From Planctomycetota bacterium (GTDB lineage: Bacteria > Planctomycetota > Phycisphaerae > Sedimentisphaerales > Anaerohalosphaeraceae), in contig VRUF01000009.1 of NCBI GenBank assembly GCA_019456245.1, positions 1 through 30,009 of the forward strand: a stretch of DNA of 30,009 nucleotides, in the 5' to 3' direction. The first letter of the stretch is position 1; every line of letters starts with the position of its first letter. Made by a program: the position numbers and the translations under genes. Positions 5,073 to 24,598 of the stretch are shown here, piece after piece. The notes beneath the pieces were generated by a model that was not told the DNA's origin, did not search any database, and saw only the letters and a program-made list of their open reading frames with translations.

Positions 5073-5384
5073 TCATGCTTTACCACCTGTTCCTGGATGA
5101 GAGCGGGAAATGATGGCCCCGATTCCTTTGACCTTCCCACTCCACACCTTCCTAAATCTAACCCTATATCTATTAAAGTGTGGCAAAGCAATCTCTTTCG
5201 TCCAGAACACTACAATCTTCTCCTCAGGCTTCAAGCCGTACTGTTCTTGTAGTATCTGAGCCATATTCGGGTACGGGTACTTGAAGGTTGTCACATATAC
5301 CGCCTTACGCAGGTTTAGCCATTGCTTCGGCACCTTATCCCCCGGCTTATATACAGGCACTAACTTCTTTACAATAAGCACCAT
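5073..5384 (-). CDS. Hypothetical basic protein, last gene of the minus-strand core operon
   Basis: 103 aa ORF starting 9 bp after the ATPase stop; no family recognised. Confidence 0.6.
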   Translation of the reverse strand: MVLIVKKLVPVYKPGDKVPKQWLNLRKAVYVTTFKYPYPNMAQILQEQYGLKPEEKIVVFWTKEIALPHFNRYRVRFRKVWSGKVKGIGAIISRSHPGTGGKA

Positions 5385-5393
5385 CTTCTTACC

Positions 5394-6746
5394 CTAAGGG
5401 GAACCTACAGAGGCATTTACTTCATCATTAGAATCCAAATAAAGTCCTTTCTTTATACGAACCAGAGGGAACCTCACATGTACTGGATCAACAAACCTGT
5501 CCTTCATCTTCACAATAGCATGTCCTACTTCAAGATGATCTATCATCCTCCTCTGCTCTGGCATAAGACTCATCGAACGAGCGATGCTTGAAATATCAGC
5601 ACCATTACCAAGAGTGAAGCAGAATTTGGAGTTTGTATTCGCGATGATAGAGTCACTCAATTTCTTGGGCTCTTGGTCAATCACAATAGCACTTTCACCA
5701 AACTCACGGATCATTCTGATAACAGTCTCCATGATGGTTTCAGTGCCTGACTTATGCTCTTTCCCCTTTGAAAGAACGTGGTGGGCCTCTTCGATAACTA
5801 TGGCGTGTTTGAACTCCTCCCTCTTGCCTTCCTGTTTCCTGAACTCGTAAATCCACAGCAGCAGGGCCTCGACAAAGAAAATCTTCTCAATCGTTGCCAG
5901 GTTATCCATTTCAATAACCACATTCTGTTGAAGCAGCGTCTCAATGCCCTCGTGCTGTCGAACATTGAGGACATTTCCCAGCAAACCTGAAAACGTCAGA
6001 CTGGCCAAGGTTCTCTTGACAGAACTCATCCATAGCATCTCTCTCCCGCGGACGAATTCCTTTCTCAGAGACTTCTCAAGATCCCTAAATGTTGGATAAC
6101 TTCCTTTCCCATCATAAATCCCAAATTGCTCGTAGAGATAGTCGATTCCTTTTCTGAGGAAATACTCCACACCATGACCGACGAAGAATGCGTGCTTCAT
6201 CACGTCCACGAGCATGGCCATCCAGTGTTTTGCGTGAACTCCTGGTGGCGGTATTAGAGGATTGAACTTGAAGTCACACAGGGGATCGCCCAGACGTATC
6301 ACTTTCAGATCCTGAAACTCTGGCAGCTGCTTCAAGTCCCGATAGTTTCTCTTCCAATCAAAGACCAGGAAGGGCTTTTTATGCCTGGCCAACTCTCTCA
6401 AAATGTGAAAGCTCAGATTCGTCTTCCCTGTACCAGTCATTCCAACGATCAGGATGTGTTTGATGAATTCATCTTCCCGCAGTCCGAACTCTGCAAATTC
6501 TTTATCAGGATATATCACAGAGCCTATATGGTAGTCCCCGGCCAATTTCTCCGACACCGGTGGAGGCAGCCTAATACTCTCCTGGTAATCCTGTTTCGCC
6601 TTCCTATCAGCGAGGAGCCTGAGCAGATCCTTATTGCCCTGGGCTGCCTTGGAATCCTTCGACAGCAGGTTCAGATACCACAAGCCTCTGGCTTTTTCAC
6701 CCATCACAGGTTCCAATTTCCTCAGTAAATCTTTAATCTCTTTCAT
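5394..6746 (-). CDS. HerA/FtsK/VirB4-superfamily ATPase (DUF87-like)
   Basis: Walker A HILIVGMTGTGKT, Walker B IVIEEAH, IREFGESAIVIDQEP, IIANTNSK. Confidence 0.85.
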   Translation of the reverse strand: MKEIKDLLRKLEPVMGEKARGLWYLNLLSKDSKAAQGNKDLLRLLADRKAKQDYQESIRLPPPVSEKLAGDYHIGSVIYPDKEFAEFGLREDEFIKHILIVGMTGTGKTNLSFHILRELARHKKPFLVFDWKRNYRDLKQLPEFQDLKVIRLGDPLCDFKFNPLIPPPGVHAKHWMAMLVDVMKHAFFVGHGVEYFLRKGIDYLYEQFGIYDGKGSYPTFRDLEKSLRKEFVRGREMLWMSSVKRTLASLTFSGLLGNVLNVRQHEGIETLLQQNVVIEMDNLATIEKIFFVEALLLWIYEFRKQEGKREEFKHAIVIEEAHHVLSKGKEHKSGTETIMETVIRMIREFGESAIVIDQEPKKLSDSIIANTNSKFCFTLGNGADISSIARSMSLMPEQRRMIDHLEVGHAIVKMKDRFVDPVHVRFPLVRIKKGLYLDSNDEVNASVGSP

Positions 6747-7342
6747 GATTCTGTGTGCAGTTGGGTTTGAGCTAGTCGTCTGTTCGCTATCTTAACAGAT
6801 TCCGGATCAATCTCAAATCCAATGAATTTTCTATTGAGCCTTTTGCAGGCAAGCGCGGTTGTCCCCGAACCGATAAACGGGTCCAGAACGAGATCGCACT
6901 CTTTGAACATGCCGATAATAAGTTTGTATAATTCGACTGGATCCTGGTACTTATGCTTTTTCCCGTCACCAACCAGGCTCTGAGCGTTGTAACAATCACT
7001 CCATATCCTTCTGTTCACCTTGTACCCGTCATCCATCTGGTACACCAGGATTGGATTCCACCGGTACGAATAGTGGCTGAACCCCTTCGCCCAGACCAGA
7101 ACTCTATGAGGTGGATACTCTCGAATCAGATGGTTCAGTTTCGTCGCAGAGTGGATGATGATCAGAACCTTGCCGCATACTCTGCTACATTCCTTAAAGA
7201 AAGAGTCATAAAACTCCCAGTAATCCCCCTGGACATCCTCCTGTTTGAAAGGGGGACTCGTCATGACCATATCAATGCTATTGTCCTTCAGTCCCTTCAT
7301 CAATTCCAGGCAGTCGCCCTGATAAATTCTGTTCGGTTTCAT
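6743..7342 (-). CDS. Small orphan beta-class N4/N6 DNA methyltransferase
   Basis: IYQGDCLELM, motif IV DMVMTSPPF before motif I VLDPFIGSGTT, GFEID; ATGA overlap with ATPase start. Confidence 0.9.
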   Translation of the reverse strand: MKPNRIYQGDCLELMKGLKDNSIDMVMTSPPFKQEDVQGDYWEFYDSFFKECSRVCGKVLIIIHSATKLNHLIREYPPHRVLVWAKGFSHYSYRWNPILVYQMDDGYKVNRRIWSDCYNAQSLVGDGKKHKYQDPVELYKLIIGMFKECDLVLDPFIGSGTTALACKRLNRKFIGFEIDPESVKIANRRLAQTQLHTES

Positions 7343-7357
7343 TTTGTCAATTGAGTT

Positions 7358-7750
7358 CTATTTCACCAACCTCCTTTTCTCACGTTCGAGGGCAAGTTCT
7401 TCCCTGGTATGCTGTAGATCATCTTGCAGCTTGATAACATCTTTAAAGTACGCGAGCCATTCGTCAATCTTCCTGAACTCTGTCCGTGCCATTTCCTGTT
7501 CAAGGGCTGTCTTCCGAGCCAAGGCAGAGCCGTTGATTGCGCTCCGATAATGCACCTGCCGGAGTTTTTCTTTTAATCTGAGTTGGTGAGTCCCAAAGCT
7601 GGATAAGGCGCCATTTCGAATGATTGCTCTCATTTGGATCTCTGTCTCCAGCTGCTTTATCCGCTCTTCGAGATTCTTGACAGGCATGTCCAGGAGAGTA
7701 TCAACTATCTCATCGACTTCATCCTCTTTTTTCAAGTTCCTCTTTTCCAT
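7358..7750 (-). CDS. Hypothetical coiled-coil protein
   Basis: 130 aa, E/K/R/L-rich, co-oriented within the operon. Confidence 0.65.
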   Translation of the reverse strand: MEKRNLKKEDEVDEIVDTLLDMPVKNLEERIKQLETEIQMRAIIRNGALSSFGTHQLRLKEKLRQVHYRSAINGSALARKTALEQEMARTEFRKIDEWLAYFKDVIKLQDDLQHTREELALEREKRRLVK

Positions 7751-7802
7751 TCTATTATTTGGTGAGCGTTAATTAATCGCCGAAGGCTGAATGCATCTTC
7801 AA

Positions 7803-8684
7803 TTATAGGAACTCCCGTAGGTAGTTTTGCCCATAGTGATCCGGTTGCATGTTCTCAGGAAGGTAGATTGCTTTAATCGGCCGCTTCTCATGCAGAGCGT
7901 CGATTGCTTGGCGCATCCCACGCCTGCCGGCTTCGTCTCCGTCAAACATGAATGCAAGCCTTTGTTCAAGTGAGAGCAACTGCTTCTTCTGATGATGACT
8001 CATTGAACTGCCCATCAGGGCGACACTTTCAAGACCTGCTGCATAAAGAGCAAACACGTCGAAAAAGCCCTCGACAACAACTACTTCTTTACCTTGATCC
8101 TTGACAACATGATTGAGATTGTAAACAACCCTATTCTTAGGAAATCCACGAGGGAAACGATATTTAGGCTGGGTGTCATCGACCGCACGACCGCAATAGG
8201 CTACCAGGTTACCGTCCACGTCATGTATGGGTATGGCAATCCTTCCAGTCATTATCCCTCTATTGCAATATCCAATACCGAAGTACTGCGCCGTCTCAGG
8301 TGATATATTTCGCGACTTCTGATAGTTATGATCAGGTTCCAGGGTTAGCCTGAACCTAAGCGGCTTCAGGACAGATCCAGCAGGCCTGCCTTCTTCATAA
8401 CAAATGCCTAGAAGATCATTTCCAATCTGAGCAGCTTCTCGCACTCCTACATTCTCAATTGCCATCAGCAGGTCAATAACAGATCCACCACCACAATGCG
8501 TAAAACAATTCCATAGATTCTTTTCAAGACTGACGTTGAAAGCCCTGGGATTGTCTCCGTTGTGAATCGGGCAGCGTCCATAAAGTTGTGATCCACTTTT
8601 TTTCAGGTCCAGTGACATGCCGTACTCGCGAAGCACTCGCTCTATCGAGAGTTCCCGTTTAATTCTTTCATAGTCTGGTTTCAT
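7803..8684 (-). CDS. DnaG-like primase (CHC2 zinc finger + Toprim)
   Basis: GRCPIH...WNCFTHCGGGSVID zinc finger; VVVVEGFFD and MFDGDEAG Toprim motifs. Confidence 0.9.
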   Translation of the reverse strand: MKPDYERIKRELSIERVLREYGMSLDLKKSGSQLYGRCPIHNGDNPRAFNVSLEKNLWNCFTHCGGGSVIDLLMAIENVGVREAAQIGNDLLGICYEEGRPAGSVLKPLRFRLTLEPDHNYQKSRNISPETAQYFGIGYCNRGIMTGRIAIPIHDVDGNLVAYCGRAVDDTQPKYRFPRGFPKNRVVYNLNHVVKDQGKEVVVVEGFFDVFALYAAGLESVALMGSSMSHHQKKQLLSLEQRLAFMFDGDEAGRRGMRQAIDALHEKRPIKAIYLPENMQPDHYGQNYLREFL

Positions 8685-8941
8685 CTTAATTCAGATTTGA
8701 TATTTTGTACTGCAACTGCAATTCGCTTGCCTTTATCGGTCATTATAATTCTCTTTATCTTTTTCGTAGGGACGATCTCTACGAGTTTTTTCTCAGCAAG
8801 ACGCTTGACAATAGCCCTTAGATGATTTATTGATGTATCGACTTCCCGGCTCAGTCTTTGGCAATATCTCTTGCTGTCTGGTGCTCTATGCAAGTGCACA
8901 AGTACGTTTATCCAAACCGGGAGATAAATTGAACTGCTCAT
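8681..8941 (-). CDS. Winged helix-turn-helix protein
   Basis: LSREVDTSINHLRAIVKRLAEKKLVEI...IIMTDKGKRIA pattern; 4-bp overlaps with both neighbours. Confidence 0.75.
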   Translation of the reverse strand: MSSSIYLPVWINVLVHLHRAPDSKRYCQRLSREVDTSINHLRAIVKRLAEKKLVEIVPTKKIKRIIMTDKGKRIAVAVQNIKSELR

Positions 8942-9633
8942 TTCCCAAACATGGTGAGCTGATCACCGCTTTTTACTTCTGATTTCGACCCACCATGAGT
9001 TTTAATTGGCTTCAATTGATCTATACTGGAATACCACTTGTTGGCATACTGCCAGTTATGAAATCCTTCGTCAGTGGATATGTCTGTCTCATGTCGAAGG
9101 CTGTCTGCGTGAAGCAAGTAGCCTGAAATATCGTGAATAGCGAAATTGGTGAAAGCTATACGTAGTGCTCTAAGATCAACGTCAACTCCAAACAACCTGG
9201 CATTTGGTGCCTGCTTGTGAGCTGCCATCAGGAGCCGTCCGGTTCCCACACATGGATCGAGGACATTGACCTTGTCCTTGGTTTCTCCTATGGTCATGGC
9301 AGCCATTGATTCAGCCACGTTCATCGGAGTAAGGAATAGGCCTTGGCGCTGCACTTGCGAAGGGCCTACCACTTTGTCCAGGTACATCTCTCCCAGATGA
9401 TCATAATAGTCTGACCGCAGTTTTTCAGGGTCATAGGTATTCATCAGCCTGTCAGCCAGTCTGCTGTCCTCAAACAGCCACTCGAACTTGTGGTCTAGCT
9501 GATGAATCAGACTCCCGCAGTTATCCGTGGCCAGGAAGTCAATAAAGTGATCCCAGGCTTCGTACCTATCATGAAACTTCTCAGTAAGTAAATCATACAT
9601 ATGCTCCAGCATCTTTCGAACTTCTTGTTTCAT
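8938..9633 (-). CDS. HsdM/N6_Mtase-like SAM-binding protein lacking the NPP(Y/F) catalytic motif
   Basis: LGEMY, GLFLTP, motif I VLDPCVGTG, FGVDVD and ADSL present; no (N/D/S)PP(Y/F) in 231 aa. Confidence 0.8.
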   Translation of the reverse strand: MKQEVRKMLEHMYDLLTEKFHDRYEAWDHFIDFLATDNCGSLIHQLDHKFEWLFEDSRLADRLMNTYDPEKLRSDYYDHLGEMYLDKVVGPSQVQRQGLFLTPMNVAESMAAMTIGETKDKVNVLDPCVGTGRLLMAAHKQAPNARLFGVDVDLRALRIAFTNFAIHDISGYLLHADSLRHETDISTDEGFHNWQYANKWYSSIDQLKPIKTHGGSKSEVKSGDQLTMFGK

Positions 9634-9680
9634 TTTGCTTACGTAGAATCACCCCTTCCGTACTTAGGCTATCCATTATT

Positions 9681-9896
9681 CTAAGCCTCTCCATTGTTTC
9701 TCATTCCTCTTATTTCAGCATCCAGCTTGTCAATTTTCTGATGCACTATTTCCAGGGAGGATTTTATTTCATCGACATCTGCGCTTTGCTTTGCGGTAAT
9801 TGCAAGATTCTTTATTACTCGGTCTTCAGTGCTCCAAATAGCCTGTTGTATTAAATCGAGCCTCGATGCCAAATCTTCAAGGGTCATTTCAGCCAT
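9681..9896 (-). CDS. Small hypothetical coiled-coil protein (probable start MAEMTLED at 9896)
   Basis: Heptad-like sequence; first gene of the minus-strand operon; start is uncertain. Confidence 0.5.
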   Translation of the reverse strand: MAEMTLEDLASRLDLIQQAIWSTEDRVIKNLAITAKQSADVDEIKSSLEIVHQKIDKLDAEIRGMRNNGEA

Positions 9897-9988
9897 AATA
9901 CAGTCGTGGTAATTCTTGTTTTTATACTTTGTGTAACTCGAGAGTGACAAAGTTTATAAGTCGGGCAGTTTTTCACTTCTTATACAAA

Positions 9989-10654
9989 ATGGGCAATACA
10001 GGATTGGTAGCCAAGTTCCTCAAGAACGGCTTTTACAATTGTGAAGACGTGGAGATCATCGAACTGCTGCTAAGACTTCATCTCGATACTCTTGACTATC
10101 GTTTCGAGGCCCAAGTGCTCCTTGATCACTATGGCAGTTTGTCCAAGGTGATTGATGCTGCCGCAGATACTCCCTTCGACGGTTCACCCATCAGGAATGA
10201 TTATCGCCTCGGACTAAGACTTCCTCACGAGATAGCCAACAGATACCTGTTTGACAGATTGAAGCAGAAACCCCTGGTCGGATCGCCAGAGTCTGTTGTG
10301 GATTATCTCACACACTCAATGAAAGGGCTAAAAAGAGAACATTTCAAGGTGTTGTACTTGGATGGCATGAACAGACTTATAGCAGATGAAGACGTTTCCA
10401 CCGGAACAGTTGGCCAGGCAATGGTCTATCCTCGTGAGGTTATGAAGTCCGCTTTAAGGCATAGTGCGGCAGGACTCATACTTGCCCACAATCATGTTTC
10501 TGGGAATCCCAAGCCAAGCCAGGATGATATCAGGATAACCGAGAAACTAAGTAATGCGGCAAGCCTGTTCGACATTGTTGTTCATGATCATATCCTCATA
10601 GGTGGAAACAGTTATTTCAGCTTTGCTGATAAAGGGCTGATTCAGAAGGCCTAA
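9989..10654 (+). CDS. radC: RadC-family JAB-domain protein
   Basis: EHFKVLYLD, VYPREV, LAHNHVSG..PSQDD, HDHILIG, YFSF..KGLI; start placed at ATG 9989 (uncertain). Confidence 0.9.
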   Translation: MGNTGLVAKFLKNGFYNCEDVEIIELLLRLHLDTLDYRFEAQVLLDHYGSLSKVIDAAADTPFDGSPIRNDYRLGLRLPHEIANRYLFDRLKQKPLVGSPESVVDYLTHSMKGLKREHFKVLYLDGMNRLIADEDVSTGTVGQAMVYPREVMKSALRHSAAGLILAHNHVSGNPKPSQDDIRITEKLSNAASLFDIVVHDHILIGGNSYFSFADKGLIQKA

Positions 10655-10667
10655 TCAAATATAGAAG

Positions 10668-10943
10668 ATGGTGACCGATTACCAATTGCGGAGGGCTGTA
10701 ACGTCTTTGGCATACAGGAGAAAATTGCTCGACGGAATGGAAGAACTAGAAGACATAGTTCGGAAGTATCTGGTTGACCACGATTTCAGCATAATCAGAA
10801 TTGGTGGCTATGATGTATTAGCTGAGAACGGCCAGATCATGTTGGCCGAAGCACCTATGGTGGATGTGAGCCAATTACACCTGCCGCTTTATGCGGCTCA
10901 CGATAATGAAAAAGATAGATCAGAAGCACGTAACCTGGACTGA
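10668..10943 (+). CDS. Hypothetical small protein, copy 1
   Basis: 91 aa; paralog at 12157 with synonymous differences at the 5' end, supporting coding status. Confidence 0.75.
   Translation: MVTDYQLRRAVTSLAYRRKLLDGMEELEDIVRKYLVDHDFSIIRIGGYDVLAENGQIMLAEAPMVDVSQLHLPLYAAHDNEKDRSEARNLD
10713..10814 (+). repeat. 102-bp perfect direct repeat, copy 1 (copy 2 at 12202-12303)
   Basis: TACAGGAGAAAATTG...GGCTATGAT identical at both loci, offset 1489 bp. Confidence 0.95.
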
Positions 10944-10958
10944 GGTAGGAGGGATTCG

Positions 10959-11288
10959 ATGAACCTGCTGCCAGACGAAATCATAAGGAAGCTACCGACT
11001 TTATACGAGCAGGAAAACCTCGGAGCAGACGCCATCGCCTATGTGAAGTACTTCACACCCGATTCGAGTTGGACCTGGTACGCCACTGAATTCGACGGTA
11101 AGGACACATTCTTCGGTCTCGTGGATGGATTCGAGAAAGAACTCGGATATTTCAGCCTCTTGGAACTGAAGGCCGCGCATGGTCCGCTGGGGCTTCCCAT
11201 CGAACGTGACCTGTACTGGAATCCAAAGACGCTCAGAGAGATCAGCCCGGAGCTGTTTGGAGGACCAGATAGGGATTATACTCTTTAG
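10959..11288 (+). CDS. DUF2958-family protein
   Basis: KYFTPDSSWTWYATEFD...FFGLVDG..ELGYFSL.EL...LPIERDL; RBS AGGAGG upstream. Confidence 0.85.
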   Translation: MNLLPDEIIRKLPTLYEQENLGADAIAYVKYFTPDSSWTWYATEFDGKDTFFGLVDGFEKELGYFSLLELKAAHGPLGLPIERDLYWNPKTLREISPELFGGPDRDYTL

Positions 11289-11421: not shown

Positions 11422-11718
11422 TTGGTCATGGTAATGGTTTCGAGAATTGAGATAGATGTTAGAAATACAATAGCGCTTCTCCTTAGACAATTCCTGCAAC
11501 AATCGAAGGGGCAGAGGAAGTACTTATCAAGAGTGATAGAAGAATATATTTCTCAAGTACTATTCTATAATGAAAGTCAGTTAAGTAATCCTATAAAGTC
11601 AATTTTGGATAAATTCAATGGATTTCATCACTGGGGGAGTGCCACGCATAAGCCACTCTATACGTTAAGAGAGCTAAGAATAATAATGAATCTTCTAAAC
11701 GAAGAAGCCCCAAATTGA
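11422..11718 (+). CDS. Possible hypothetical protein
   Basis: 98 aa AT-rich ORF ending inside a hairpin; no family recognised. Confidence 0.35.
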   Translation: MVMVMVSRIEIDVRNTIALLLRQFLQQSKGQRKYLSRVIEEYISQVLFYNESQLSNPIKSILDKFNGFHHWGSATHKPLYTLRELRIIMNLLNEEAPN

Positions 11719-11729
11719 ATTGGGGCTTC
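11704..11729. terminator. Hairpin, possible bidirectional terminator
   Basis: GAAGCCCCAA-attgaa-TTGGGGCTTC, 10-bp perfect stem between convergent ORFs. Confidence 0.6.
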
Positions 11730-11791
11730 ACCGGCTAGTTTGTTGGCGTAATCTCGAGCATGCTCTCTAAGATTACAGACCAATTCCTCTA

Positions 11792-11992
11792 TCAATCGTC
11801 ACCCCAATCAGAATCTACTTGCCCGTTCTGATCAATGCGCGTGACGATATGGACTGGAACAGGATCTGGTCCCTTATCCAAGTGGTCAACCACATCTACA
11901 TACGGTCCCTTATGCTGAATCTGGGTTAGATGGTCAGGGGTGCCAATATCGAAAGTCTGACCAGGGTTAATCTGTCCTAGAGACTTTTCCAT
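11792..11992 (-). CDS. Small hypothetical protein
   Basis: 66 aa with AAAGGGAG RBS ahead of the ATG. Confidence 0.45.
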   Translation of the reverse strand: MEKSLGQINPGQTFDIGTPDHLTQIQHKGPYVDVVDHLDKGPDPVPVHIVTRIDQNGQVDSDWGDD

Positions 11993-12064: not shown

Positions 12065-12156
12065 ATCCTGTTCAACGCGATACTCATGTAAACATCATTG
12101 TCGGCTGGAACGGGTATACCAGTTTTCAGAAGGAGGGGTTGATAAAGAAGGTTTGA
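12065..12156 (+). pseudogene. Degenerate radC C-terminal remnant
   Basis: Translates ILFNAILM*/IIVGWNGYTSFQKEGLIKKV* (one stop, one frameshift) and aligns with SLFDIVVHDHILIGGNSYFSFADKGLIQKA* of the intact radC; directly precedes the second copy of the small gene. Confidence 0.7.
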
Positions 12157-12396
12157 ATGGTAACTGACTACCAGCTCCTTCGGGCAGCGCAATCTTTGGC
12201 GTACAGGAGAAAATTGCTCGACGGAATGGAAGAACTAGAAGACATAGTTCGGAAGTATCTGGTTGACCACGATTTCAGCATAATCAGAATTGGTGGCTAT
12301 GATTTATTAGCTGAGAACGGTCAGATCAGGTTGGCCGAAGCACCGATGGTGCTTGCAGATCAGTTACGGCTTCCGCTGGAAATTGTTGGAGATTAA
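12157..12396 (+). CDS. Hypothetical small protein, copy 2 (paralog of 10668-10943)
   Basis: 79 aa, near-identical central region. Confidence 0.75.
   Translation: MVTDYQLLRAAQSLAYRRKLLDGMEELEDIVRKYLVDHDFSIIRIGGYDLLAENGQIRLAEAPMVLADQLRLPLEIVGD
12202..12303 (+). repeat. 102-bp perfect direct repeat, copy 2
   Basis: Identical to 10713-10814. Confidence 0.95.
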
Positions 12397-12713: not shown

Positions 12714-13310
12714 TTATTTTATGAATTGTATAAAACTGATTTCATCCCAAGGTACATAGACACCGCCGCTCCCACGGTGTTCTATCCATTTCTTTTTATT
12801 TACATAAAATGTCTTGTTTAAATATATGTCCCTGCCTATCTCAGGGTTCGCTCCGATGAACGCCTTTGAATCTAATTTTCCTCTTATTACCTTACCAGAT
12901 TTAAGTAGTATTTTCAGATAAACTTCCCTTTTCTGAAGATAAAAATAGTTGTCCCACGCTGAAGGCATGGACGAAATTGTCATCGATAACTTCTTTCTTA
13001 TCCATCGAGTGGAATGACTCCCAATGAAATTTACTCCAATCGCAGAAGTGATTGGGCTTATCACAAGGAGAACTGATAGTAAAAACCAGAACAATAAAGG
13101 AGAATCATTAAGAAGGGTCGATTCTGCCAGTAAAAAAAATGCCCACCCCCAAATAGCCAAGTTAATGGATCCGTAAGTCAAAGTCTGAATTAAAAACCTC
13201 GTTCCCTCGGTAGTCTGACGAGGTCTGATCACTCCCATGAAGGCAGTGCATATAAACCCTGGTACAAAAAACACTATAGCAATGAAGAGCCCTTCTAGCG
13301 TTGTTGGCAT
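12714..13310 (-). CDS. DUF6338-like membrane protein
   Basis: IAIVFFVPGFI, three hydrophobic segments, SAWDNYF, LKSGKVIRG, RDIYL, GGVYVPWDEISFIQF. Confidence 0.75.
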   Translation of the reverse strand: MPTTLEGLFIAIVFFVPGFICTAFMGVIRPRQTTEGTRFLIQTLTYGSINLAIWGWAFFLLAESTLLNDSPLLFWFLLSVLLVISPITSAIGVNFIGSHSTRWIRKKLSMTISSMPSAWDNYFYLQKREVYLKILLKSGKVIRGKLDSKAFIGANPEIGRDIYLNKTFYVNKKKWIEHRGSGGVYVPWDEISFIQFIK

Positions 13311-13614
13311 TTTGTCCCGCTTGACTTACATGGCATAGTGAATTGGATCTCCTCTCAAATTTAATGATCGATTGGAAGAGCATCAACCCATATCCCCCAA
13401 GTAATAGTCTCCGGTCTCAAGCGCAACAAGCACACTAAGCGCACAGAGCAAACGCCCCCTTCGACACTGAAGGGTATGTTCCCTTCAAGAAAGGAACCTA
13501 ACATGAACAATCCATTTGATCCAGATAGAATCGAATCCTTTATGGAGCAGATGGCTCACTGAGAAAATCAAAGGTCATGTTAAATCTAGAAAAACTGGAT
13601 GATGAAGAAGTATT

Positions 13615-13686
13615 GACTACGTCCCCTTGGGACAAGGCTTGAGATTTTTCAGGGAGTATTTGGAGTATGTGGTTGGGATCTTGTAA
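13615..13686 (+). repeat. Dispersed repeat copy A (DYVPLGQGLRFFREYLEYVVGIL*)
   Basis: 26 bp (13654-13679) identical to 18397-18422; peptide-level match to copies B and C. Confidence 0.85.
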
Positions 13687-13736
13687 CTCTAGGATTAAAG
13701 AAATTTAGGCAAACAACCGAATGAACAGACAAGTGT

Positions 13737-15152
13737 TCAAGCAAATGGGATATGGCGCAAGCGAGAAATAATATGCTGTTTTATATCTTCCCTTCTCCCT
13801 AATGAAACAATATCTGGGAAAAGCACATAGAGTCGCAATATATAAAGAAAATGATCAGAAAGGATTTTCATTAGCGAGTTATCCATTTCCATTATGGTCC
13901 TTGGCTCATCATTATCTTCTTTTATGAAGATTGATCTTCCAAGTTGCTCATAATGACTCTCTTTTGGATCTAACATTTCGGATACTGGCATTCTACTACC
14001 CATCGAAGTTATCGAGTTTATGGGAATTTCAACAACTTCCCAAAGGTCTTCAGGAATATCATATCTCTTTGCTAAATCCGGTATGAGACTTTCCAACTCG
14101 TTGACCATTGAAGCAAATCCCTGCTGATGATCACGAGTCCCGAGATGCTCATAAGATACAATTGCCTTAGGAGGCTGCCTATATAGTATAGAATCTGCTT
14201 TTATTTTCAGAATCCTATCATTATTTCTTATCTGTTTTATCTTCTCGAGTATGAAATGATCGTTAAAATCGCGCCATGCTCCATTTTCAATCTTATCTTG
14301 AATTACAGATTTTGTGCAATCGAGATCATCATCTAATAATGCCATAATTAGGTCTTGAAGAATTTTTTCAATACCAGAAGTTGTCTTATGATAAACGATT
14401 TGCTTGTATTGAAAATACCGAGAGATTAAGAAGTGATCAGCAGCTGCCAAAGCCTTATAAGGAAGGCACAACCTATTATTTTTACCGCCGACTGTAAACT
14501 GGCTAATTAAGTAATTAATATCATGTAAGCCGTAAGGAAGGGCTGTTAGGTGAGCAGTACGTAGTAAATAATCAATGCGGTCTGCGTCTAAATCGGAGTT
14601 GAGAAGACTAGGGAAACGAACTTCGGGACTATGAGGTCTTAGTAATTCGGAAATTAACTTGGCGCTAATATTTTCAGAATCTAACACTTGGTTTATGCCT
14701 GGATCTTTGAGTATTATTTGCCTGCCAAGCCTATCATGGGAATAATATTCTTGGATTGAATGACCGTTTCTATGAGAATTAGAATTTATTGTCTGCAATG
14801 TGTAGTAATTACTTACGGATTTTTCCATAACATGAGAAAATGGATAATGGCCAATATCATGGAGTAGTGCTGCCAGTCGATAATATTGGATCTCGTCTTC
14901 TGATATACCCAAACTTTTATTTTTCATTCTTAACGAATTGAGTATGCGTCCAGCGATGTGGCACGTACCAATAGAATGGGTCAACCGAGAACACTCAGCG
15001 CTGGGGTAAACGTAATGAATTAAACCCAGTTGTCTTATGTTACGAAGGCGTTGAAAGGTAGGAGTACGGATGATTTTGGTCTCGAGCTCACTAAGTCCTA
15101 TTAATCCATGAAGAGGATCAGATATATTTATATGGTGGTATCTACTGGACAA
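13737..15152 (-). CDS. HD-domain phosphohydrolase, YwfO/SAMHD1-like (putative dNTP triphosphohydrolase)
   Basis: DPLHG, FQRLRNIRQLG, RLTHSIG, LLHDIGHYPFSH, DADRIDYLLR. Confidence 0.9.
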   Translation of the reverse strand: MSSRYHHINISDPLHGLIGLSELETKIIRTPTFQRLRNIRQLGLIHYVYPSAECSRLTHSIGTCHIAGRILNSLRMKNKSLGISEDEIQYYRLAALLHDIGHYPFSHVMEKSVSNYYTLQTINSNSHRNGHSIQEYYSHDRLGRQIILKDPGINQVLDSENISAKLISELLRPHSPEVRFPSLLNSDLDADRIDYLLRTAHLTALPYGLHDINYLISQFTVGGKNNRLCLPYKALAAADHFLISRYFQYKQIVYHKTTSGIEKILQDLIMALLDDDLDCTKSVIQDKIENGAWRDFNDHFILEKIKQIRNNDRILKIKADSILYRQPPKAIVSYEHLGTRDHQQGFASMVNELESLIPDLAKRYDIPEDLWEVVEIPINSITSMGSRMPVSEMLDPKESHYEQLGRSIFIKEDNDEPRTIMEMDNSLMKILSDHFLYILRLYVLFPDIVSLGRREDIKQHIISRLRHIPFA

Positions 15153-15175
15153 TTAGCAAAATATCGATTATCAAA

Positions 15176-15664
15176 CTACAATAGGCTTACATTCTTTAGT
15201 TCGGCCTCTGCCTTAGAAATATACTTAGATAATTCAGGTTTTTCCCTCCCTAGATAGGTCCGTGACTTCCGATAAGAGAACTCGGAAACTTTCTGCAAGT
15301 AATGAAGAGATGCTAGTAGCTCCACCCACTGATGAGTCTCCAGATCAGGTTTGTCTTTTGAATAGATCAGGTCACATATCTTATGAATAACTGAGGTATA
15401 AGATTCGATTATTGTCTTACCTTCGAGCAATTTAGGATTGATCAAATAGGCTTGCATTAAGGCATTGTAATCCTCTGCCAGCGCTGGACTATATGGTCCC
15501 TTTGAATCCCATATATACCTATACCCGAGGTCTGCTCCATCATATTGAGCTAAATAAACAGCTTTTTGCGTCATTTTTCGTCCTTCAAACTTTTCAATAT
15601 CATGGGGCTCGATTCTAAGTTCTCTAAGATATACCCCTAGTGCGATAAGTCTAGCGTCCTTCAT
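15176..15664 (-). CDS. YwgA/SocA(DUF4065)-like protein
   Basis: RKMTQKAVYL...LGYRY.W...GPYS..L pattern; ELLASLHY; RBS AAGGAGG. Confidence 0.7.
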   Translation of the reverse strand: MKDARLIALGVYLRELRIEPHDIEKFEGRKMTQKAVYLAQYDGADLGYRYIWDSKGPYSPALAEDYNALMQAYLINPKLLEGKTIIESYTSVIHKICDLIYSKDKPDLETHQWVELLASLHYLQKVSEFSYRKSRTYLGREKPELSKYISKAEAELKNVSLL

Positions 15665-16166
15665 TTTGCCTCCTTCTGTGATATTGAATTGAGTTCATAT
15701 ATACTTGGTCAAAGCATCGAATGCTTAATTTGCCCTAATTGTCTTATAATATCAAATATCCTTCATATAATCTACGTGAAATTCATTTATCGTAAGTCGC
15801 TGTTATATATAAACTTAACACATTTCATAGAATAAGCGCATACCTCTTCATTGAGTTGCCTCAACATCGATATCGGCAGAAAATATGATACCTTGAGTTT
15901 CACAACCGGTCTGACCTTGGATAGTACTATCTTCTCTTCCTATTTACAAGAGCTTTCTGTGAAATAAATCACACGCTTTGGGTCATCCCTTATTCTATCG
16001 AGGTCCTGCCCGAGCACCCTATGACATGGTGTAGATTAGGTTTTGTGAAGTAGAATACCTGTCTGTCCACAAGGCTCTCAGTGATGGTCAACCAAAGAGT
16101 ATGCTTGAAGAAGCCTGTAGGTTTACTCACCACCTCAGAACCAGGATACTTTATGACGGCAGAATC

Positions 16167-16238
16167 GACGGCGTTGGTATGGGTCAGGGATTGAGATTCC
16201 TAAAGGAGTATTTGGGGTATATTGTAATCAGCCTGTGA
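16167..16238 (+). repeat. Dispersed repeat copy B (end of a 45-aa mini-ORF, 16101-16238)
   Basis: DGVGMGQGLRFLKEYLGYIVISL*. Confidence 0.75.
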
Positions 16239-16324
16239 TCGATGAAGGCTATGCACGAATTCTAACATTGAGGTTTACGTACTCTTGAGCAATATTATTC
16301 GTAAATTCAATTGTAGGAGGTACT

Positions 16325-18259
16325 ATGAAACTAGAGAAGATAACGATAAAGAACGTAAGAAGTTTTAAATCCCAGACACCTGTATCATTTGGCGAAAAAG
16401 TCTCAATCTTGATAGGCCCAAACGCCGGAGGAAAGAGCAATCTTTTAGACATCATTACTATTGCTATGAGATCCTTTTTATTTAAGACGTATGCAGAATA
16501 TAGGCGTGAAAGAAATGGATATTTCTATACTGACATCGAGGAAAAGTCAGTTTTTAAAGATACAAGTATAATTCTGGAGAAATTTTCTGGTGACGATTCA
16601 GACTCAAGCATTATCATTACTATTCGACCAAGCCATGAAGACTTGTTGAACATGAGAATGATACAAGACAACACTGAAAGGTTCCTTGACCTGCTAGGTA
16701 CTAAATACAAAAATAAGCCATTGAGCGACCTTTCTTTCCTGGCAACGTGGGATTTTGAGGATTTGGAACAACTTCCCTCCTTATCATATAGATATATCAA
16801 TAACCAGCTCCAAAGTCCAGAACTGGCTACACCAGCTGATTTCTATCTCCAATACCTTCAATATTTTGATTTTTTCCTGCTGCTATCTCGTCGCTTGCCG
16901 GACATAGATCTAAAGCCAACGTTTCTCTATTTTTCTCCCTATAGACAAGCAACTCAAGAAAGTCTAAGGATCTCATTGTCAGGACAAACATACTCCGACC
17001 TGTTGACGAGCTACTTTGGTTCTACATCCCATTCTCCACAGACGACAATCATTCAATTGGCAACTAGTTATTTCGCCCAAAAGAGGCGCGAATACGAAAT
17101 TCAAGGCCGAACTGAAGGATGGGAAAATAGCTGGATCAACGATGAAGAGGTAGGTCTTTTAACCAAGTATTTGAACCTCTTAGGGTACGACTGGGACATG
17201 GAGATTCTTCATGACTCCAGTAACATCTATGCCATTCAATTAAAAAGGGGTAGTTCTCTACTAGAATTGAATAGGGCAAGTTCTGGGGAGAAAGAAATAG
17301 TCAATTTTCTTATGGGAATATTTTCATTTAATATTAGAAATGGACTCATTATCATAGACGAGCCGGAATTACATCTTCATCCTAAGTGGCAAAGGACGTT
17401 GATAGATTTATTCCAAACTATGGCAGAAGATACAGGGAATCAATTCATATTAGCAACTCATTCACCAGCATTAATTACTGAAAAAACAATTGATAGCGTA
17501 TTAAGAGTCTATAGTGATAATACAGGATCGAGTAAGGTCATGAAGATAGTTAATGAGTCAATTGGCGATGCAAGAGACATTCTTCACATTGTTAACTCAC
17601 ACCATAATGAGAAACTATTTTTCGCAGACAGGGTAGTGTTGGTCGAAGGACCGACAGATAGACTGATATTTGAATCGATGATAGGAAAATATCTAGCGAA
17701 AAAAGAAATAGTTATTGAAGTGTTAGATGTAGGAGGGAAACACAATTTTGATAAGTATATAAATTTCTTGAATAGTATCGAAGTTAAAAATGCAATAGTA
17801 GGGGATTTGGACTACGTCTTTGATATTGGAAATGAGGTGATTAAGAAGCTGTTTTTAACGGACTATCAAGGAATAGACGAGAAAATAATTAAGAAAAAGA
17901 AGAGTAAGGACAGAAAAACACTTGCTGAGAAGTTGGAAAGTGCATTAGAAACAAACCAATTAGGTGAACTTAAGGAATTCTGGAAGTACCTAAAGAGCAG
18001 GCAATACAAGCTACGTGGTGATCTAAGCCGAATAGAAAAACAAACATTAGATGATTTTATCAATGAGCTAAGGGAGCGTTTAATATTCATATTACGTCAA
18101 GGAGAAATAGAAGATTACCTACCTGACGGCTATAAGGATTTGGACGGAGTAATTGAGTTGGTTATAGAAGAGAACTTTGATAAATGGTTGAAAGATATGG
18201 AGTGCACCGAAGGATTGGAGGAATTGAAACTAATAGTAAGAGCAATCATCGATGCCTGA
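16325..18259 (+). CDS. OLD-family ATP-dependent nuclease (ABC ATPase + Toprim)
   Basis: Walker A GPNAGGKS, signature SSGEKE, Walker B IIIDEPELHLHP, ATHSP; Toprim VVLVEGPTD, VGGK, IVGDLD. Confidence 0.9.
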   Translation: MKLEKITIKNVRSFKSQTPVSFGEKVSILIGPNAGGKSNLLDIITIAMRSFLFKTYAEYRRERNGYFYTDIEEKSVFKDTSIILEKFSGDDSDSSIIITIRPSHEDLLNMRMIQDNTERFLDLLGTKYKNKPLSDLSFLATWDFEDLEQLPSLSYRYINNQLQSPELATPADFYLQYLQYFDFFLLLSRRLPDIDLKPTFLYFSPYRQATQESLRISLSGQTYSDLLTSYFGSTSHSPQTTIIQLATSYFAQKRREYEIQGRTEGWENSWINDEEVGLLTKYLNLLGYDWDMEILHDSSNIYAIQLKRGSSLLELNRASSGEKEIVNFLMGIFSFNIRNGLIIIDEPELHLHPKWQRTLIDLFQTMAEDTGNQFILATHSPALITEKTIDSVLRVYSDNTGSSKVMKIVNESIGDARDILHIVNSHHNEKLFFADRVVLVEGPTDRLIFESMIGKYLAKKEIVIEVLDVGGKHNFDKYINFLNSIEVKNAIVGDLDYVFDIGNEVIKKLFLTDYQGIDEKIIKKKKSKDRKTLAEKLESALETNQLGELKEFWKYLKSRQYKLRGDLSRIEKQTLDDFINELRERLIFILRQGEIEDYLPDGYKDLDGVIELVIEENFDKWLKDMECTEGLEELKLIVRAIIDA

Positions 18260-18357
18260 TGATCATTTTATTGATACTGACGCATAATCAACCATTCATA
18301 GAGCTCAGAAAAGCTTAACGCTATTCATTTACTCAGAAAAAGGCCATGAGAAAAATG

Positions 18358-18441
18358 GACTACATCACCATAGGACAGGGCCTGAGATTCCTCAAAGAGT
18401 ATTTGGAGTATGTGGTTGGGATAGAGGATTGTCACCGATGA
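18358..18441 (+). repeat. Dispersed repeat copy C (end of a 31-aa mini-ORF, 18346-18441)
   Basis: DYITIGQGLRFLKEYLEYVVGIEDCHR*. Confidence 0.85.
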
Positions 18442-18503
18442 ACATTGATAGTTATTGCTTTAGTGAGAGATGAAACCTTTGCTCTTCAAAAACATATACT
18501 TAT

Positions 18504-19511
18504 ATGATAGTGAATTATGAGCATTCATATGTAGAACCTTTCTTACGTCTCGTTCCGAGTGTTATTGTCGGTAAGCATCGTATTCGAGCGGTTTTTGACA
18601 AGCTCCGCGTTCGGCCAATAGAAGAGACCTTCCACGAGTTCCTGATTGCAATTGTGCAATGGACTTTTGGGGAGCCGTGGTGGAAACGTCAAGTAGGGAT
18701 GCCAAAAACTGAGCGTCATGTGGTTGTTCGTTGGTGGTTTGACTTCAACAATCTAAGACAAAAGAGGATCGGTGAGGTTAAGGAGGGGCCAGGTGGCCCA
18801 ATTTATTCCGCCAATGCAACAGGGAATATTTGGTCGTTGCTCCTGTTCGGTTGGGACTTATATTGTTTGCAAACAAAAAACATGCTCCCTGATTTTCTTC
18901 GTGAAAAACTACGTGATCACAAGAGCTTCCAGGCAGCGAGGTATGAGATTGCCGTGGCCGCTGTCATAGCACGCGCTGGATTTGAAATTGATTTCCTTGA
19001 TGAGGCTGGTGTTCAGGAGAAGCACTGTGAGTTTATCGCTAAGCATCGAGACCATATCACGCAATTAGGCATTGAAGCCAAAAGTCGTATTCGACCGGGT
19101 GTTCTCAATGAACCCGGGGATTTTAACTATACTGGGGATTGGAAGGGGATGCGCAAACTTATAAGATCCGCAAAGAAGCAAAAGCCACCGGATCTTGCGT
19201 TCCTTATCTTTATTGATGTTAATCTTCCATTAACTCCTGGGATTCCACCATTACAAAAGCCTTGGTTAGTTGACCTTCAGAAAGCCCTCGCAATCCTCGG
19301 TGAACCATCGACTAAAAATCCCGACCCTTTTAATGCATTAATCCCCACTAATTTTGCCCGCTATTTTTTAGATGCTAGTGTTGAATCTCCACCACTGGAA
19401 TTCGGTTTTGTACTTTCAGGATTCCCTCAGACGTCACTACCGAACCACGAAGTGCTTAATGCCATATGGGATAGCCTTGATAGGTATGGCAAAATCCCTG
19501 ATGATATATAG
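18504..19511 (+). CDS. Hypothetical protein with a PD-(D/E)xK restriction-endonuclease-like region
   Basis: ARYEIAVA...HCEFIAK...GIEAKSR, plus IFIDVN. Confidence 0.6.
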   Translation: MIVNYEHSYVEPFLRLVPSVIVGKHRIRAVFDKLRVRPIEETFHEFLIAIVQWTFGEPWWKRQVGMPKTERHVVVRWWFDFNNLRQKRIGEVKEGPGGPIYSANATGNIWSLLLFGWDLYCLQTKNMLPDFLREKLRDHKSFQAARYEIAVAAVIARAGFEIDFLDEAGVQEKHCEFIAKHRDHITQLGIEAKSRIRPGVLNEPGDFNYTGDWKGMRKLIRSAKKQKPPDLAFLIFIDVNLPLTPGIPPLQKPWLVDLQKALAILGEPSTKNPDPFNALIPTNFARYFLDASVESPPLEFGFVLSGFPQTSLPNHEVLNAIWDSLDRYGKIPDDI

Positions 19512-19743
19512 TACTGAAGCTTCTCTTCCTTTTTAAAACCAAAACATTTAAATACTTCAATGCCTTAATGGTCTTCATCACTTAAGTCAAAACGTCATGT
19601 ACGTTAATTGCCGGCTCTTTAAATGTGACACTTTCTAAGGAAGCCTGGTCCGGGCGTCCTCTGATTCTGTCACACAATAAGAGCTGAAATACAACTCAAC
19701 TGCCACAAAATTATAAAACCCAGTGATTGTCACTAACAGGAAA

Positions 19744-20940
19744 ATGCCAGATCCTGAAAAGAAAGATATACATAATCGGAAAAGAGGTTACCAAACTGCT
19801 TTGAAGAACTTGGAAGGTAATACAGAGATCATTCCTCGTAATAAGGAACTTATTCTAAAATTTATTCGGGACTGTCGTCTCGGGAAAACGCTTAGGAACA
19901 GGCAGAAGAAGAGTATTGGAGTTGCTCGATGCCTGAAGTATATCTGCATTTTAAAGAAACTATCCTCATGGTTAAATAAACCATTTGATCAAGTTGTCCA
20001 AAGGGACATGGAAAAACTCATAGAAAATTTAGAAAATGACAATTATACGAGTGAACTGCGTGGAAAGAATGGTCAAGTTATAAAAATAAAAAAACTAGCT
20101 CATTCCACGAAGCTGGATTATAAGAAGACGATCAGGAAATTCTACAAGTGGCTCCTTGGCAATAATGACCATTTCCCTGAGTTGGTTGACTGGATTGATA
20201 CTTATGATTTACCACGAGAGGTCTCTGCCTTGACCAGGGATGAAGTTGAGAGGCTTGCCGATGCGTCGAAAATTCGAGATAAAGCCATCATCATGTTATT
20301 GTTCGACAGCGGCGCGAGAGCAGAGGAATTCCTGAACATCAAGATAAGTGATCTCACGAAGCGCGACGATATCTACAGGATGAGGATAGTCCACTCCAAG
20401 ACAAAGCCCAGGACGATCCACCTACCGATAGGCACCAAGTACCTTGATCTGTGGCTCCAAGGATTTACGGACAGGGACGATCAGAGTTACCTCTTCCCGA
20501 TAACCTATGAGGGGCTTAGAATGATGCTGCACAGAGTAGGGAAGAGAGTACTGAATAAGAGGGTCACGCCCCATATACTGCGTCACACCAGTGCCACATA
20601 CTACGCCAACTTGTTGAACCACCACCAGCTTTGTTATCGGTACGGGTGGGCGATGGCAAGTAATATGCCCAACCGCTATATTGATCGTGAGGGCATTCTC
20701 GAAGAGGAAACGCGCCATATCGTGAAAACGAATGACTTAGCTACCCTAGAGAGGCAGAACCAGGTGCTGCAGGAGGAGCTGGCTCTTCTCAAGCAAGGAA
20801 ATGAGCAGGTGAATAGGGAACTCGCTGATCTGCGGAGAAAGTACGATGGACTTTTTGCGGGAAAGGGACTGATGAGATTGCTAGCAGCGTTATCTAAAGA
20901 TCGAAAGGGTGGTTGGATGGTGAATTCTCAGTACTCGTAG
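19744..20940 (+). CDS. Tyrosine recombinase/integrase with C-terminal coiled coil
   Basis: RDKAIIMLLFDSGARAEE (Arg I), SKTK, PHILRH (HxxR), YGW...MPNRY (catalytic Tyr); ATG at 19744 follows AGGA. Confidence 0.92.
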   Translation: MPDPEKKDIHNRKRGYQTALKNLEGNTEIIPRNKELILKFIRDCRLGKTLRNRQKKSIGVARCLKYICILKKLSSWLNKPFDQVVQRDMEKLIENLENDNYTSELRGKNGQVIKIKKLAHSTKLDYKKTIRKFYKWLLGNNDHFPELVDWIDTYDLPREVSALTRDEVERLADASKIRDKAIIMLLFDSGARAEEFLNIKISDLTKRDDIYRMRIVHSKTKPRTIHLPIGTKYLDLWLQGFTDRDDQSYLFPITYEGLRMMLHRVGKRVLNKRVTPHILRHTSATYYANLLNHHQLCYRYGWAMASNMPNRYIDREGILEEETRHIVKTNDLATLERQNQVLQEELALLKQGNEQVNRELADLRRKYDGLFAGKGLMRLLAALSKDRKGGWMVNSQYS

Positions 20941-22237: not shown

Positions 22238-22474
22238 ATGAAAATAAAAGAGAATGGCCCCTTCTACACCTTCTTTGTTGATGGGGTAGAATATCATATT
22301 GAAGAATCCACGATTACTGGCGGTGGGATCATGGACCTTGCAGGCATACCGTATGAAGTTGGGTTACTTCAACTTCTTGAGGATGGAACCCAACGAGCAG
22401 TTGCAGTGGACGAAGTGGTCGAGCTTAAGCCTGGCCGTCGGTTCAAGAAAGCCCCCCGATACAAGAGAGGATAG
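22238..22474 (+). CDS. Ubiquitin-like beta-grasp protein (multi-ubiquitin-domain type), ends in Gly
   Basis: 78 aa from RBS-supported ATG 22238: FFVDGVEY...TITGGGIMDLAGIP...DEVVEL...KAPRYKRG*. Confidence 0.8.
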   Translation: MKIKENGPFYTFFVDGVEYHIEESTITGGGIMDLAGIPYEVGLLQLLEDGTQRAVAVDEVVELKPGRRFKKAPRYKRG

Positions 22475-22475
22475 C

Positions 22476-22868: not shown

Positions 22869-22869
22869 T

Positions 22870-24255: not shown

Positions 24256-24598
24256 TCACCAAACATGTGATTGGATAGGAAATAGTGGTAAACGGTATAA
24301 TTACTACATCCACTCGCTACCTACATCAATTGATCCTGGTCAGGACGGTAACTACATCTATGCCAAATTGAATAATCAGCAGCAGTGGATCCCAGTTTAT
24401 GTTGGCGAGGGTGATCTTGCGGATCGTTCAAGCAGTAGTCATCATCAAGCAGATTGTATAAGGAGAAAAGGTGCAACTCATTTTCATTGCCACTTAAATG
24501 CCAGCAAACAAGATCGTCGTTCTGAGGAACAGGACCTTCTCTCCAATTATCAAAACGCTTATCAGCCAAACGGGTGCAATGAACAGCTTGGTGGCTAG
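24248..24598 (+). CDS. Small GIY-YIG-like protein ending in Leu-Gly-Gly
   Basis: GNYIY...YVGEGDLADR...HH...EEQDLL...PNGCN; overlaps the E1 stop by 8 bp; ends CTT GGT GGC TAG. Confidence 0.7.
   Translation: MTSHQTCDWIGNSGKRYNYYIHSLPTSIDPGQDGNYIYAKLNNQQQWIPVYVGEGDLADRSSSSHHQADCIRRKGATHFHCHLNASKQDRRSEEQDLLSNYQNAYQPNGCNEQLGG

Follow-up and report, generated by a model that had tools for sequence, protein, structure and literature searches.

Hotspots of variable DNA between conserved genes are found in SXT/R391 integrative and conjugative elements (ICEs), reportedly also constituting the minimal mobile elements of Neisseria, while cis-mobilisable elements (CIMEs) are integrase-less units known from tandem accretion of integrative elements. 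In the effector-immunity clusters of the Vibrio cholerae type VI secretion system (T6SS), a proposed sequential displacement leaves shifted 3' ends and orphan immunity genes (PMC5361080). In the model put forward, both this process and the C-terminal displacement of Rhs proteins combine a homologous anchor on one side with an illegitimate join on the other, arrays being formed by repetition (PMC5361080). Partial tRNAs scattered through tycheposon islands represent the site-specific counterpart of such gene stumps (10.1101/2020.12.28.424599). The present analysis concerns an element on contig VRUF01000009.1 (30,009 nt, forward strand) of a Planctomycetota bacterium (family Anaerohalosphaeraceae; assembly GCA_019456245.1), in which three short repeats punctuate defence-type cargo upstream of a tyrosine integrase gene. 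The window referred to throughout is this entire 30-kb contig, within an assembly of 3.0 Mb in 399 contigs (71% complete). The repeats derive from the 3' end of a protein gene, termed X here, and are probably scars of homology-driven serial displacement or accretion that may still serve as short patches of homology.

A repeat search returns one family of 74-nt direct repeats on the same strand, at 13606-13679 (copy A), 16158-16231 (copy B) and 18349-18422 (copy C), with spacings of 2552 nt (A to B) and 2191 nt (B to C); no other repeat family of near-comparable length is present within 12-21 kb. Relative to copy A, identity is 65% for B and 82% for C, with A and C sharing a stretch of 26 identical bases. 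All three are located between cargo modules and upstream of the integrase gene, in the order DUF6338 (minus strand), A, HD and 162-aa genes (minus strand), B, OLD, C, 335-aa gene, integrase. Their common reading frame is xIDYVxxGQGLRFLKEYL(E/G)YVV.. followed by a stop codon, the minus-strand frame of the motif being without conservation. When the three peptides are searched by tblastn against the whole 3.0-Mb assembly, the motif is confined to these three sites; two weaker matches, in a galactokinase gene and another open reading frame (ORF), are attributed to chance and neither is the parent gene. The original prediction, made by a model from the sequence of the window, had described three same-strand copies with the above spacing, the 26 bases shared by A and C, a copy at each module boundary and the lack of a full-length parent gene in the window. 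The search recovers the first two, the ORF and domain map upholds the third, and the fourth extends to the assembly as judged by tblastn. The positions given for the copies stand likewise, with copy B in fact longer than described, starting at about 16047.

The parent of the three copies is gene X, which lies outside the window. A scan of metagenome contigs with a degenerate pattern gave five loci, with contig L006 containing a complete 136-aa gene that carries the motif at its end. The hunt for a parent gene by a tBLASTn-type search, proposed with the prediction, is thereby answered: X is found in relatives and is absent from the assembly. No motif was found in 60 relatives, GTDB representative genomes, viral contigs or plasmids. 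The X family is rare and unnamed, composed of proteins of 105-137 aa; a full HMMER search of 1.84 billion representative proteins yielded only eight relatives, four of them full-length (106-121 aa, 29-51% identity), with the C-terminal helix as the best-conserved part of their alignment. X matches no family in Pfam, PHROG or NCBIfam. An AlphaFold model of X (predicted local distance difference test, pLDDT, 79) consists of four beta strands followed by four helices, the motif forming the last helix and the longer stumps the last two; a Foldseek search with this model matched nothing in the PDB or the AFDB clusters. The protein-atlas scores for X (0.83) are a lead only. Two stretches of the window were considered as the parent gene and rejected, namely 11422-11718, a homologue of the gene after X in L006, and 13311-13605, including the ATG at 13503, which as a decayed X gave no X-family match in any frame.

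By comparison with these homologues, each copy is the last 25-63 codons of a different X allele, ending at or near the natural stop. Copy A (13606..13686, plus strand) is a short stump of 26 codons plus a TAA at the natural stop position, corresponding to positions 99-119 of the X-family hidden Markov model (HMM). It has no in-frame start codon, and its left 47 nt are 91% identical to the metagenome copy L005. Copy B (16047..16238, plus strand) is a long stump of about 63 codons plus TGA, spanning HMM positions 60-120 and resembling the P0001 and L006 allele. Its homology to the parent begins at about 16047 at the protein level and at 16065 at the DNA level, with an abrupt edge near 16065. Over the last 156 nt of the intact L006 gene (L006:1764-2174) nucleotide identity is 93.6%, and the codon changes comprise 10 synonymous and 6 non-synonymous ones. 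Copy C (18349..18441, plus strand) is a second short stump, with X homology at 18349-18423 followed by 6 unrelated codons including the stop (TGA).

Across the stumps of the window and its relatives the right end is nearly fixed and the left end is not. Six stumps (A, B, L008a, L009a, L009b and the L011 stump) reach the natural stop, six codons past EYLG; copy C lacks the last two codons, and in L005 and L007 the break falls directly after EYLG, with the loss of the last six codons. The left ends of the short stumps lie at about 48, 54-72, 66-75, 72 and 81 nt before the stop, all different, while those of the long stumps on contigs that were read lie at about 148, 151 and 173-185 nt. Two further sequences may be long stumps: P0005, a short predicted protein whose join precedes the stop by about 125-135 nt, and P0004, a predicted 65-aa ORF (about 198 nt) on a 531-nt contig that was not read. 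Beyond the stop, the flanks of the copies are unrelated. In terms of allele affinity, A groups with L005 and L007 and B with P0001 and L006, and L008a is the copy closest to C; identity of B to the L006 X reaches 94%, as against 85% for the backbone. With A, B and C coming from different alleles, different donors are therefore implied. The 162-aa gene and the 143-aa gene of L007, each of which is located upstream of a long stump, were compared as possible relatives and are unrelated.

Conservation among the copies follows the reading frame. In nine copies (three from the window, six from metagenomes), compared over 12 core codons, the 207 pairwise differences fall on codon positions 1, 2 and 3 in the ratio 24/28/155 (permutation p = 2e-5), so that 75% lie on the third position, and 147 of the differing codon pairs are synonymous as opposed to 44 non-synonymous. 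This test bears out the earlier claim that many differences among the copies are synonymous and reflect past selection on the peptide; they are synonymous because the copies are tails of a protein gene. Ten of the 12 wobble positions vary and the motif DNA sequence itself is therefore unconserved, while GAG-TAT-TTG is near-invariant at the DNA level. The conserved entity, judging by the codon pattern, is the peptide and not a DNA site.

The surrounding element belongs to a family with a recognisable layout, as seen in the gene neighbourhoods of two distant X members (P0007 and P0008) and in L011, a locus from an Armatimonadota metagenome-assembled genome (MAG): a minus-strand operon with a small gene, a HerA/CedD-like ATPase and further genes, RadC and X on the plus strand, a variable region of 1.7 to about 6 kb, and a tyrosine integrase on the plus strand. 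X, which comes either directly after RadC or after RadC, a small gene and DUF2958, closes the backbone, and the variable region begins behind it. This synteny holds for the joined contigs L006 and L008, for L011 and for the P0007 and P0008 contexts, and the X stop is therefore the left border of the variable region. In the window, the backbone genes for RadC (9929-10654), a 91-aa protein and DUF2958 (together 9929..11288, plus strand) are 85% identical at the nucleotide level to L006:1-1631. The gene order in L006 is RadC, 84 aa, DUF2958, X, 93 aa and 66 aa (minus strand), while in the window DUF2958, ending at 11288, is directly followed by a 98-aa gene (plus strand) and a 66-aa gene (minus strand) at 11422..11992, with 49% and 71% amino acid identity to their L006 counterparts. 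About 630 nt of L006 (approximately 1660-2290), which hold X, have no counterpart in the window, X being missing between 11289 and 11421. By this alignment the element of the window has lost X at its proper place, and the 98-aa and 66-aa genes are the first, semi-conserved content of its variable region.

The right border is formed by a 110-nt conserved block and the integrase gene at 19723-20940 (together 19613..20940, plus strand). Homology to L008, to L010 and to a contig from sequencing run X6 begins at 19611-19614 in each comparison, with integrase identities to that of the window of 88% for L008 and 70% for L010. The integrase has 405 aa and matches Pfam Phage_integrase, with a XerA-like family as its best NCBIfam match (87.9 bits against a cutoff of 220). 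Between the X stop and the 19611-19614 block, different cargo is present in the window, in L006 with L008, in L011 and in the P0008 context. Within the 110-nt block an inverted pair TGTGACA ... TGTCACA is present at 19625-19681, which may be an operator or an arm or core site.

Stumps recur in related elements, where they were located by nhmmer and a six-frame search with the X-family HMM. Contig ends overlapping perfectly over 123 nt connect L006 with L008 and L007 with L009, giving two longer metagenomic arrays. The first consists of X, a 93-aa gene, a 66-aa gene (minus strand), a short stump, an Abi_alpha-like gene, a degenerate stump, an Mrr-like nuclease, 119-aa and 226-aa genes and the integrase. 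The second contains an IS3-OrfA fragment fused to a short stump, a GIY-YIG-like gene (minus strand), a long stump, a Pycsar-like cyclase (minus strand), another short stump and DUF3262 genes. In L011, RadC and X are followed by five genes, a 143-nt stump, three genes and the integrase. This stump is 85% identical to the resident X of L011, which has only 28% identity to that of L006 yet is accompanied by a stump of its own; the phenomenon therefore follows the gene and the architecture rather than one DNA sequence. The expectation that related elements carry variable cargo at the motif is thus borne out, there being four arrays, including that of the window, with different cargo between the stumps. 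Integrases of the stump-bearing metagenomic and MAG relatives are 59-88% identical to that of the window. In elements without X whose integrases are 44-70% identical (L010, L012-L016), as well as in L017 (partial integrase match, 52%), neither the motif nor internal gene-end repeats were detected. Relatives of the element occur in MAGs of Armatimonadota, Zixibacteriota, Cloacimonadota, Neomarinimicrobiota and Ignavibacteria. A module of two genes (100 aa on the plus strand, 86 aa on the minus strand), present at L011:4392-5170 and absent at L021:589-603, lies directly after the X stop and is a clean cargo swap at the X border without a stump.

The process is not limited to X. At 12085..12396 (plus strand) the window contains a stump of a second backbone copy, comprising the degraded 3' end of radC (12085-12156) and, behind it, a 79-aa version of the 91-aa gene, in which a 159-nt central patch is 97% identical to the resident gene at 10704-10862. 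This radC stump, in the same region, is a scar of like kind derived from another backbone gene, and the process is therefore not tied to the X motif. Fragments of an IS3-type OrfA (HTH_Tnp_1-like) are fused in frame to X tails in L005 (5463-5586), L007 (5936-6060) and P0005, with two different join points. The join of P0005 falls at an EACR stretch common to both parts, which suggests that the fusions were made at microhomologies. In addition, about five tandem 69-nt units at L005:5584-5934 begin exactly where the X stump breaks after EYLG.

Exchange between stumps is suggested at copy C. A 1.3-kb contig from another sample (L022) is colinear with 18268-19555 of the window and about 98% identical. 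Within copy C the two differ at 12 of 75 positions, as opposed to 7 of 161 in the non-coding sequence next to it on either side (Fisher p = 0.004, for one pair), and in relation to all other L022 positions the excess has p = 1e-5. At 8 of these 12 sites, including the 26-base stretch identical in A and C, the state in the window is that of copy A. The clustering is consistent with gene conversion between stumps, as read from one orthologue pair. A contig from run X4 breaks inside copy C at 18386, an ambiguous observation, as a diverged motif of the L022 type would clip at the same place; no joints at stumps were seen among short Logan contigs from other runs.

The account of serial displacement that these observations make probable may be set out as follows. 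An incoming related element would engage through one homologous crossover, in the conserved backbone or the integrase block, while the other join would be illegitimate, falling inside or just before the X of the resident or the incoming element. Alternatively, two elements would come to lie in tandem, followed by deletion of the duplicated backbone. A truncated X tail would remain attached to the cargo that natively followed X, and repetition with different donors would generate the order stump, cargo, stump, cargo, integrase. Short stumps alone would survive because longer duplicated stretches of backbone would recombine away, and the radC stump with the copied small gene would represent the same process one gene further upstream. 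The common 40-75 nt of peptide-constrained sequence would still be exchanged between stumps and could serve later swapping or loss of cassettes. The account is founded on the parent gene, the synteny, the different alleles and the peptide conservation, on left ends that vary and right ends that are natural, on the radC stump and on the clustering of differences in copy C, while the order of events, the side of the homologous anchor and the joining agent, namely homologous recombination of host or element and not the integrase, are what we infer. The original prediction had proposed that defence genes were added serially, either by homologous recombination or in an integron-like manner by the adjacent recombinase. 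The first route gains support from the copy C tract; the second is not supported.

Several observations weigh against serial displacement. The arrays number only four, mostly from marine-sediment metagenomes and partly from the same projects, making a small and non-independent sample. The left ends are not evenly spread but form two clusters, one at about 50-80 and the other at 125-200 nt ahead of the stop codon. Every stump has an open frame, with the long ones beginning at or before a conserved Met, and open frames with Met starts could mean either function or a preferred cut site. A 125-nt composite of OrfA and X stump is shared by L005 and L007, in contexts where neither flank matches, a pattern that resembles the reuse of a junction more than a random scar. 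Among the assembled contigs no recombination intermediate was seen. What keeps the alternatives alive is that the stumps come in two size classes and have unbroken frames, and that the arrays sampled are few and in part not independent.

The first of these alternatives is a dedicated cassette platform, with the motif as a site at which the adjacent tyrosine integrase or another enzyme inserts and excises modules in an integron-like manner. It is unlikely, although in four arrays each module boundary carries the motif, without exception on the strand of the integrase, and the integrases are related in those arrays whose contig extends to one. The right end of the motif is precise, GAG-TAT-TTG hardly varies at the DNA level, and sequence inspection reveals an imperfect inverted pair CCTCAA/TTGGGG around a 7-nt spacer. 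However, a DNA site agrees poorly with variation at 10 of the 12 wobble positions and with left ends that differ between copies. Single-stranded DNA folds of five copies on both strands (ten folds) gave z values of +1.53 to -1.20 against shuffles, with no attC-like hairpin. The integrase is not IntI (TIGR02249 28.4 bits, cutoff 265) and is located downstream and co-oriented, while cargo lies on both strands, as with the HD and 162-aa module, the L009 cyclase and a gene for a type IX secretion system (T9SS) tail protein in L011, all in the opposite orientation. The motif is absent from the above elements lacking X, L011 displays the same phenomenon with a motif too diverged for a common DNA site, and the radC stump reveals a process independent of the motif sequence. 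Integron-like capture by the adjacent recombinase accordingly finds no support, given the integrase score, the wobble variation, the missing hairpin and the varying left ends. That the X tail is a genuine recombination site embedded in coding sequence, used by the XerA-like integrase or a host factor to capture and shuffle defence cassettes, seems improbable; if true, uncultured sediment bacteria of several phyla would possess a platform akin to integrons but lacking IntI and attC.

It is similarly doubtful that the array arose by tandem site-specific accretion, in which integrase-bearing islets would have targeted an attB in the 3' end of X, each supplying a replacement tail, with later loss of their integrases as in CIMEs. 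The topology is that of the partial-tRNA repeats in tycheposon islands (10.1101/2020.12.28.424599), with direct repeats in one orientation that represent different alleles and end at a natural gene end. Nevertheless, there are no integrase remnants between the stumps of the window, and the repeat blocks have no common left boundary. Nor do nhmmer and the six-frame HMM detect any copy of the motif beyond the integrase of the window, or in the short stretches after that of L008 (about 400 nt) and that of L011 (about 200 nt). Moreover, the integrase belongs to the backbone in relatives with just 1.7 kb of small genes between X and integrase.

There is likewise only a slight chance that the stumps are functional mini-ORFs of 29-46 aa that encode the final helix, or helical hairpin, of X and act, for instance, as regulators or partner-binding peptides beside each defence module. 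In all stumps the frame does stay open as far as a stop codon in roughly its natural position. C, L008a, B, L009a and the L011 stump contain a Met in frame, the start of the long stumps coincides with or precedes the Met conserved in the family, and most changes between stumps are synonymous. Such a synonymous bias is, however, expected if the copies diverged when their parent genes were still intact. No start codon is present in copy A or L007, the last six codons are missing from L005 and L007, promoter-like signal is at chance level, and X itself is dispensable in this element. In a promoter and terminator scan counts equalled those of shuffles, with none on the stumps, and an Rfam search of 11-23 kb in E-value mode gave one chance-level microRNA match elsewhere. 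A recurrent leader peptide or regulatory RNA, offered in the prediction as an alternative, consequently finds no Rfam match, structure, promoter or terminator signal in its favour, and copy A is without a start codon. The motif is not part of an insertion sequence (IS) or miniature inverted-repeat transposable element (MITE), the case named beforehand as refuting, as there are three copies in one array, without an inverted-repeat partner, which are fragments of a protein gene.

The cargo between the borders includes a DUF6338 protein (12714..13310, minus strand). The module after copy A (13737..15664, minus strand) encodes an HD or dGTPase-like protein of 471 aa (13737-15152) and the 162-aa protein (15176-15664), and that after copy B is an OLD-family ATPase-TOPRIM nuclease (16325..18259, plus strand). 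The module after copy C (18504..19511, plus strand) encodes a 335-aa protein of a widespread unnamed family. The label "PD-(D/E)xK-like" previously given to the latter could not be reproduced, with no match in Pfam, PADLOC, NCBIfam or PHROG, nor does the protein match the defence library. Its family gives 506 matches at E <= 1e-10, many of which have a C-terminal SEC-C motif (PF02810) that the copy in the window lacks; the sole close relative of this cassette sits on a 1.3-kb contig. Outside the variable region, homologues of E2-like, E1-like and DUF2779 genes (22299-26299) lie to the right of the integrase in the window, while in a Zixibacteriota relative they lie between backbone and integrase (L014:6221-9707); this cargo is therefore placed on different sides of the integrase in related elements.

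The backbone operon (5073..9950, minus strand), syntenic in L011, L014 and the P0007 and P0008 contexts, encodes a 103-aa protein, a HerA/CedD-like ATPase, a methyltransferase, a 130-aa protein, a DnaG-like primase, an 86-aa protein, a methyltransferase-like protein and an 89-aa protein. The best NCBIfam match of the ATPase (5394-6746, minus strand) is CedD, at 88 bits and far below cutoff; CedD is the DNA-translocating ATPase of the crenarchaeal Ced system. The ATPase gene is accompanied by that of the primase, and among the genes scanned no relaxase or type IV secretion system (T4SS) genes were recognised. A helicase-C protein and a 1110-aa Eco57I/TaqI_C-type methyltransferase fusion occupy 1-5069, separated by a 3-nt gap from the left-most backbone gene, and the left end of the element may therefore lie beyond the contig. 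On the other side, a 34-nt GC-rich hairpin at 24619-24652, after a GIY-YIG-like gene, is single-copy in the assembly; in the Neomarinimicrobiota locus L010 a site that lies 7.2 kb downstream of the integrase matches it with 94% identity. In contigs from runs X3 and X4 the sequence to either side of it is unrelated. Its possible roles are those of a conserved terminator, an element end or an att core.

Compared with the systems outlined at the start, the locus resembles T6SS and Rhs displacement in form, with a proposed upstream anchor and illegitimate downstream join, a cut gene whose 3' end is pushed downstream together with the gene that follows, and arrays punctuated by 3' stumps. Here, however, the displaced gene is a small accessory gene and not a toxin, the neighbours are defence modules and not immunity genes, and an integrase gene forms the far border; in either system the mechanism is an inference. 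With tycheposons and CIMEs it has in common that partial 3'-end copies separate cargo blocks beside a tyrosine recombinase, with newer arrivals pushing older ones along. Whereas those are att sites with fixed boundaries, created by integration at a tRNA or gene end, with degenerate integrases between units, here the boundaries vary, integrase relics are missing between stumps, and the integrase is not followed by a repeat.

As in the Neisseria and SXT hotspots, sharp conserved borders (the X stop and the block at 19613) enclose unrelated content, consistent with homologous recombination in the flanks. Those hotspots usually swap their content cleanly, while here it has accumulated together with stumps derived from the flank; truncated copies of flanking genes, from different alleles, do lie inside the region, as recognised by the X-family HMM and in the radC stump. 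Integrons resemble the locus in their modules of one or two genes, a recurring element of 50-170 nt, an adjacent tyrosine recombinase and defence-type cargo. They differ in that the locus has neither an IntI-type integrase nor a folded attC-like site, is conserved at the peptide level and contains genes in mixed orientations, with a downstream, co-oriented integrase in place of the divergent one of integrons, which has attI and Pc beside it.

The kind of scar is already known; a new integron-like capture system is not supported, and no new recombination mechanism is revealed. New here are the X family, the delimitation of a defence hotspot in a family of compact elements that is spread over several phyla of sediment bacteria, and the conversion signal. 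From the array it can be read how a small, little-known integrative element of marine-sediment bacteria came by its cargo (HD or dGTPase-like, OLD and 335-aa modules), each module still bearing the stump of the gene that once preceded it. Stumps of this type can serve to delimit cargo units, to locate defence candidates without annotation in the intervals between them, and to date and order acquisitions.

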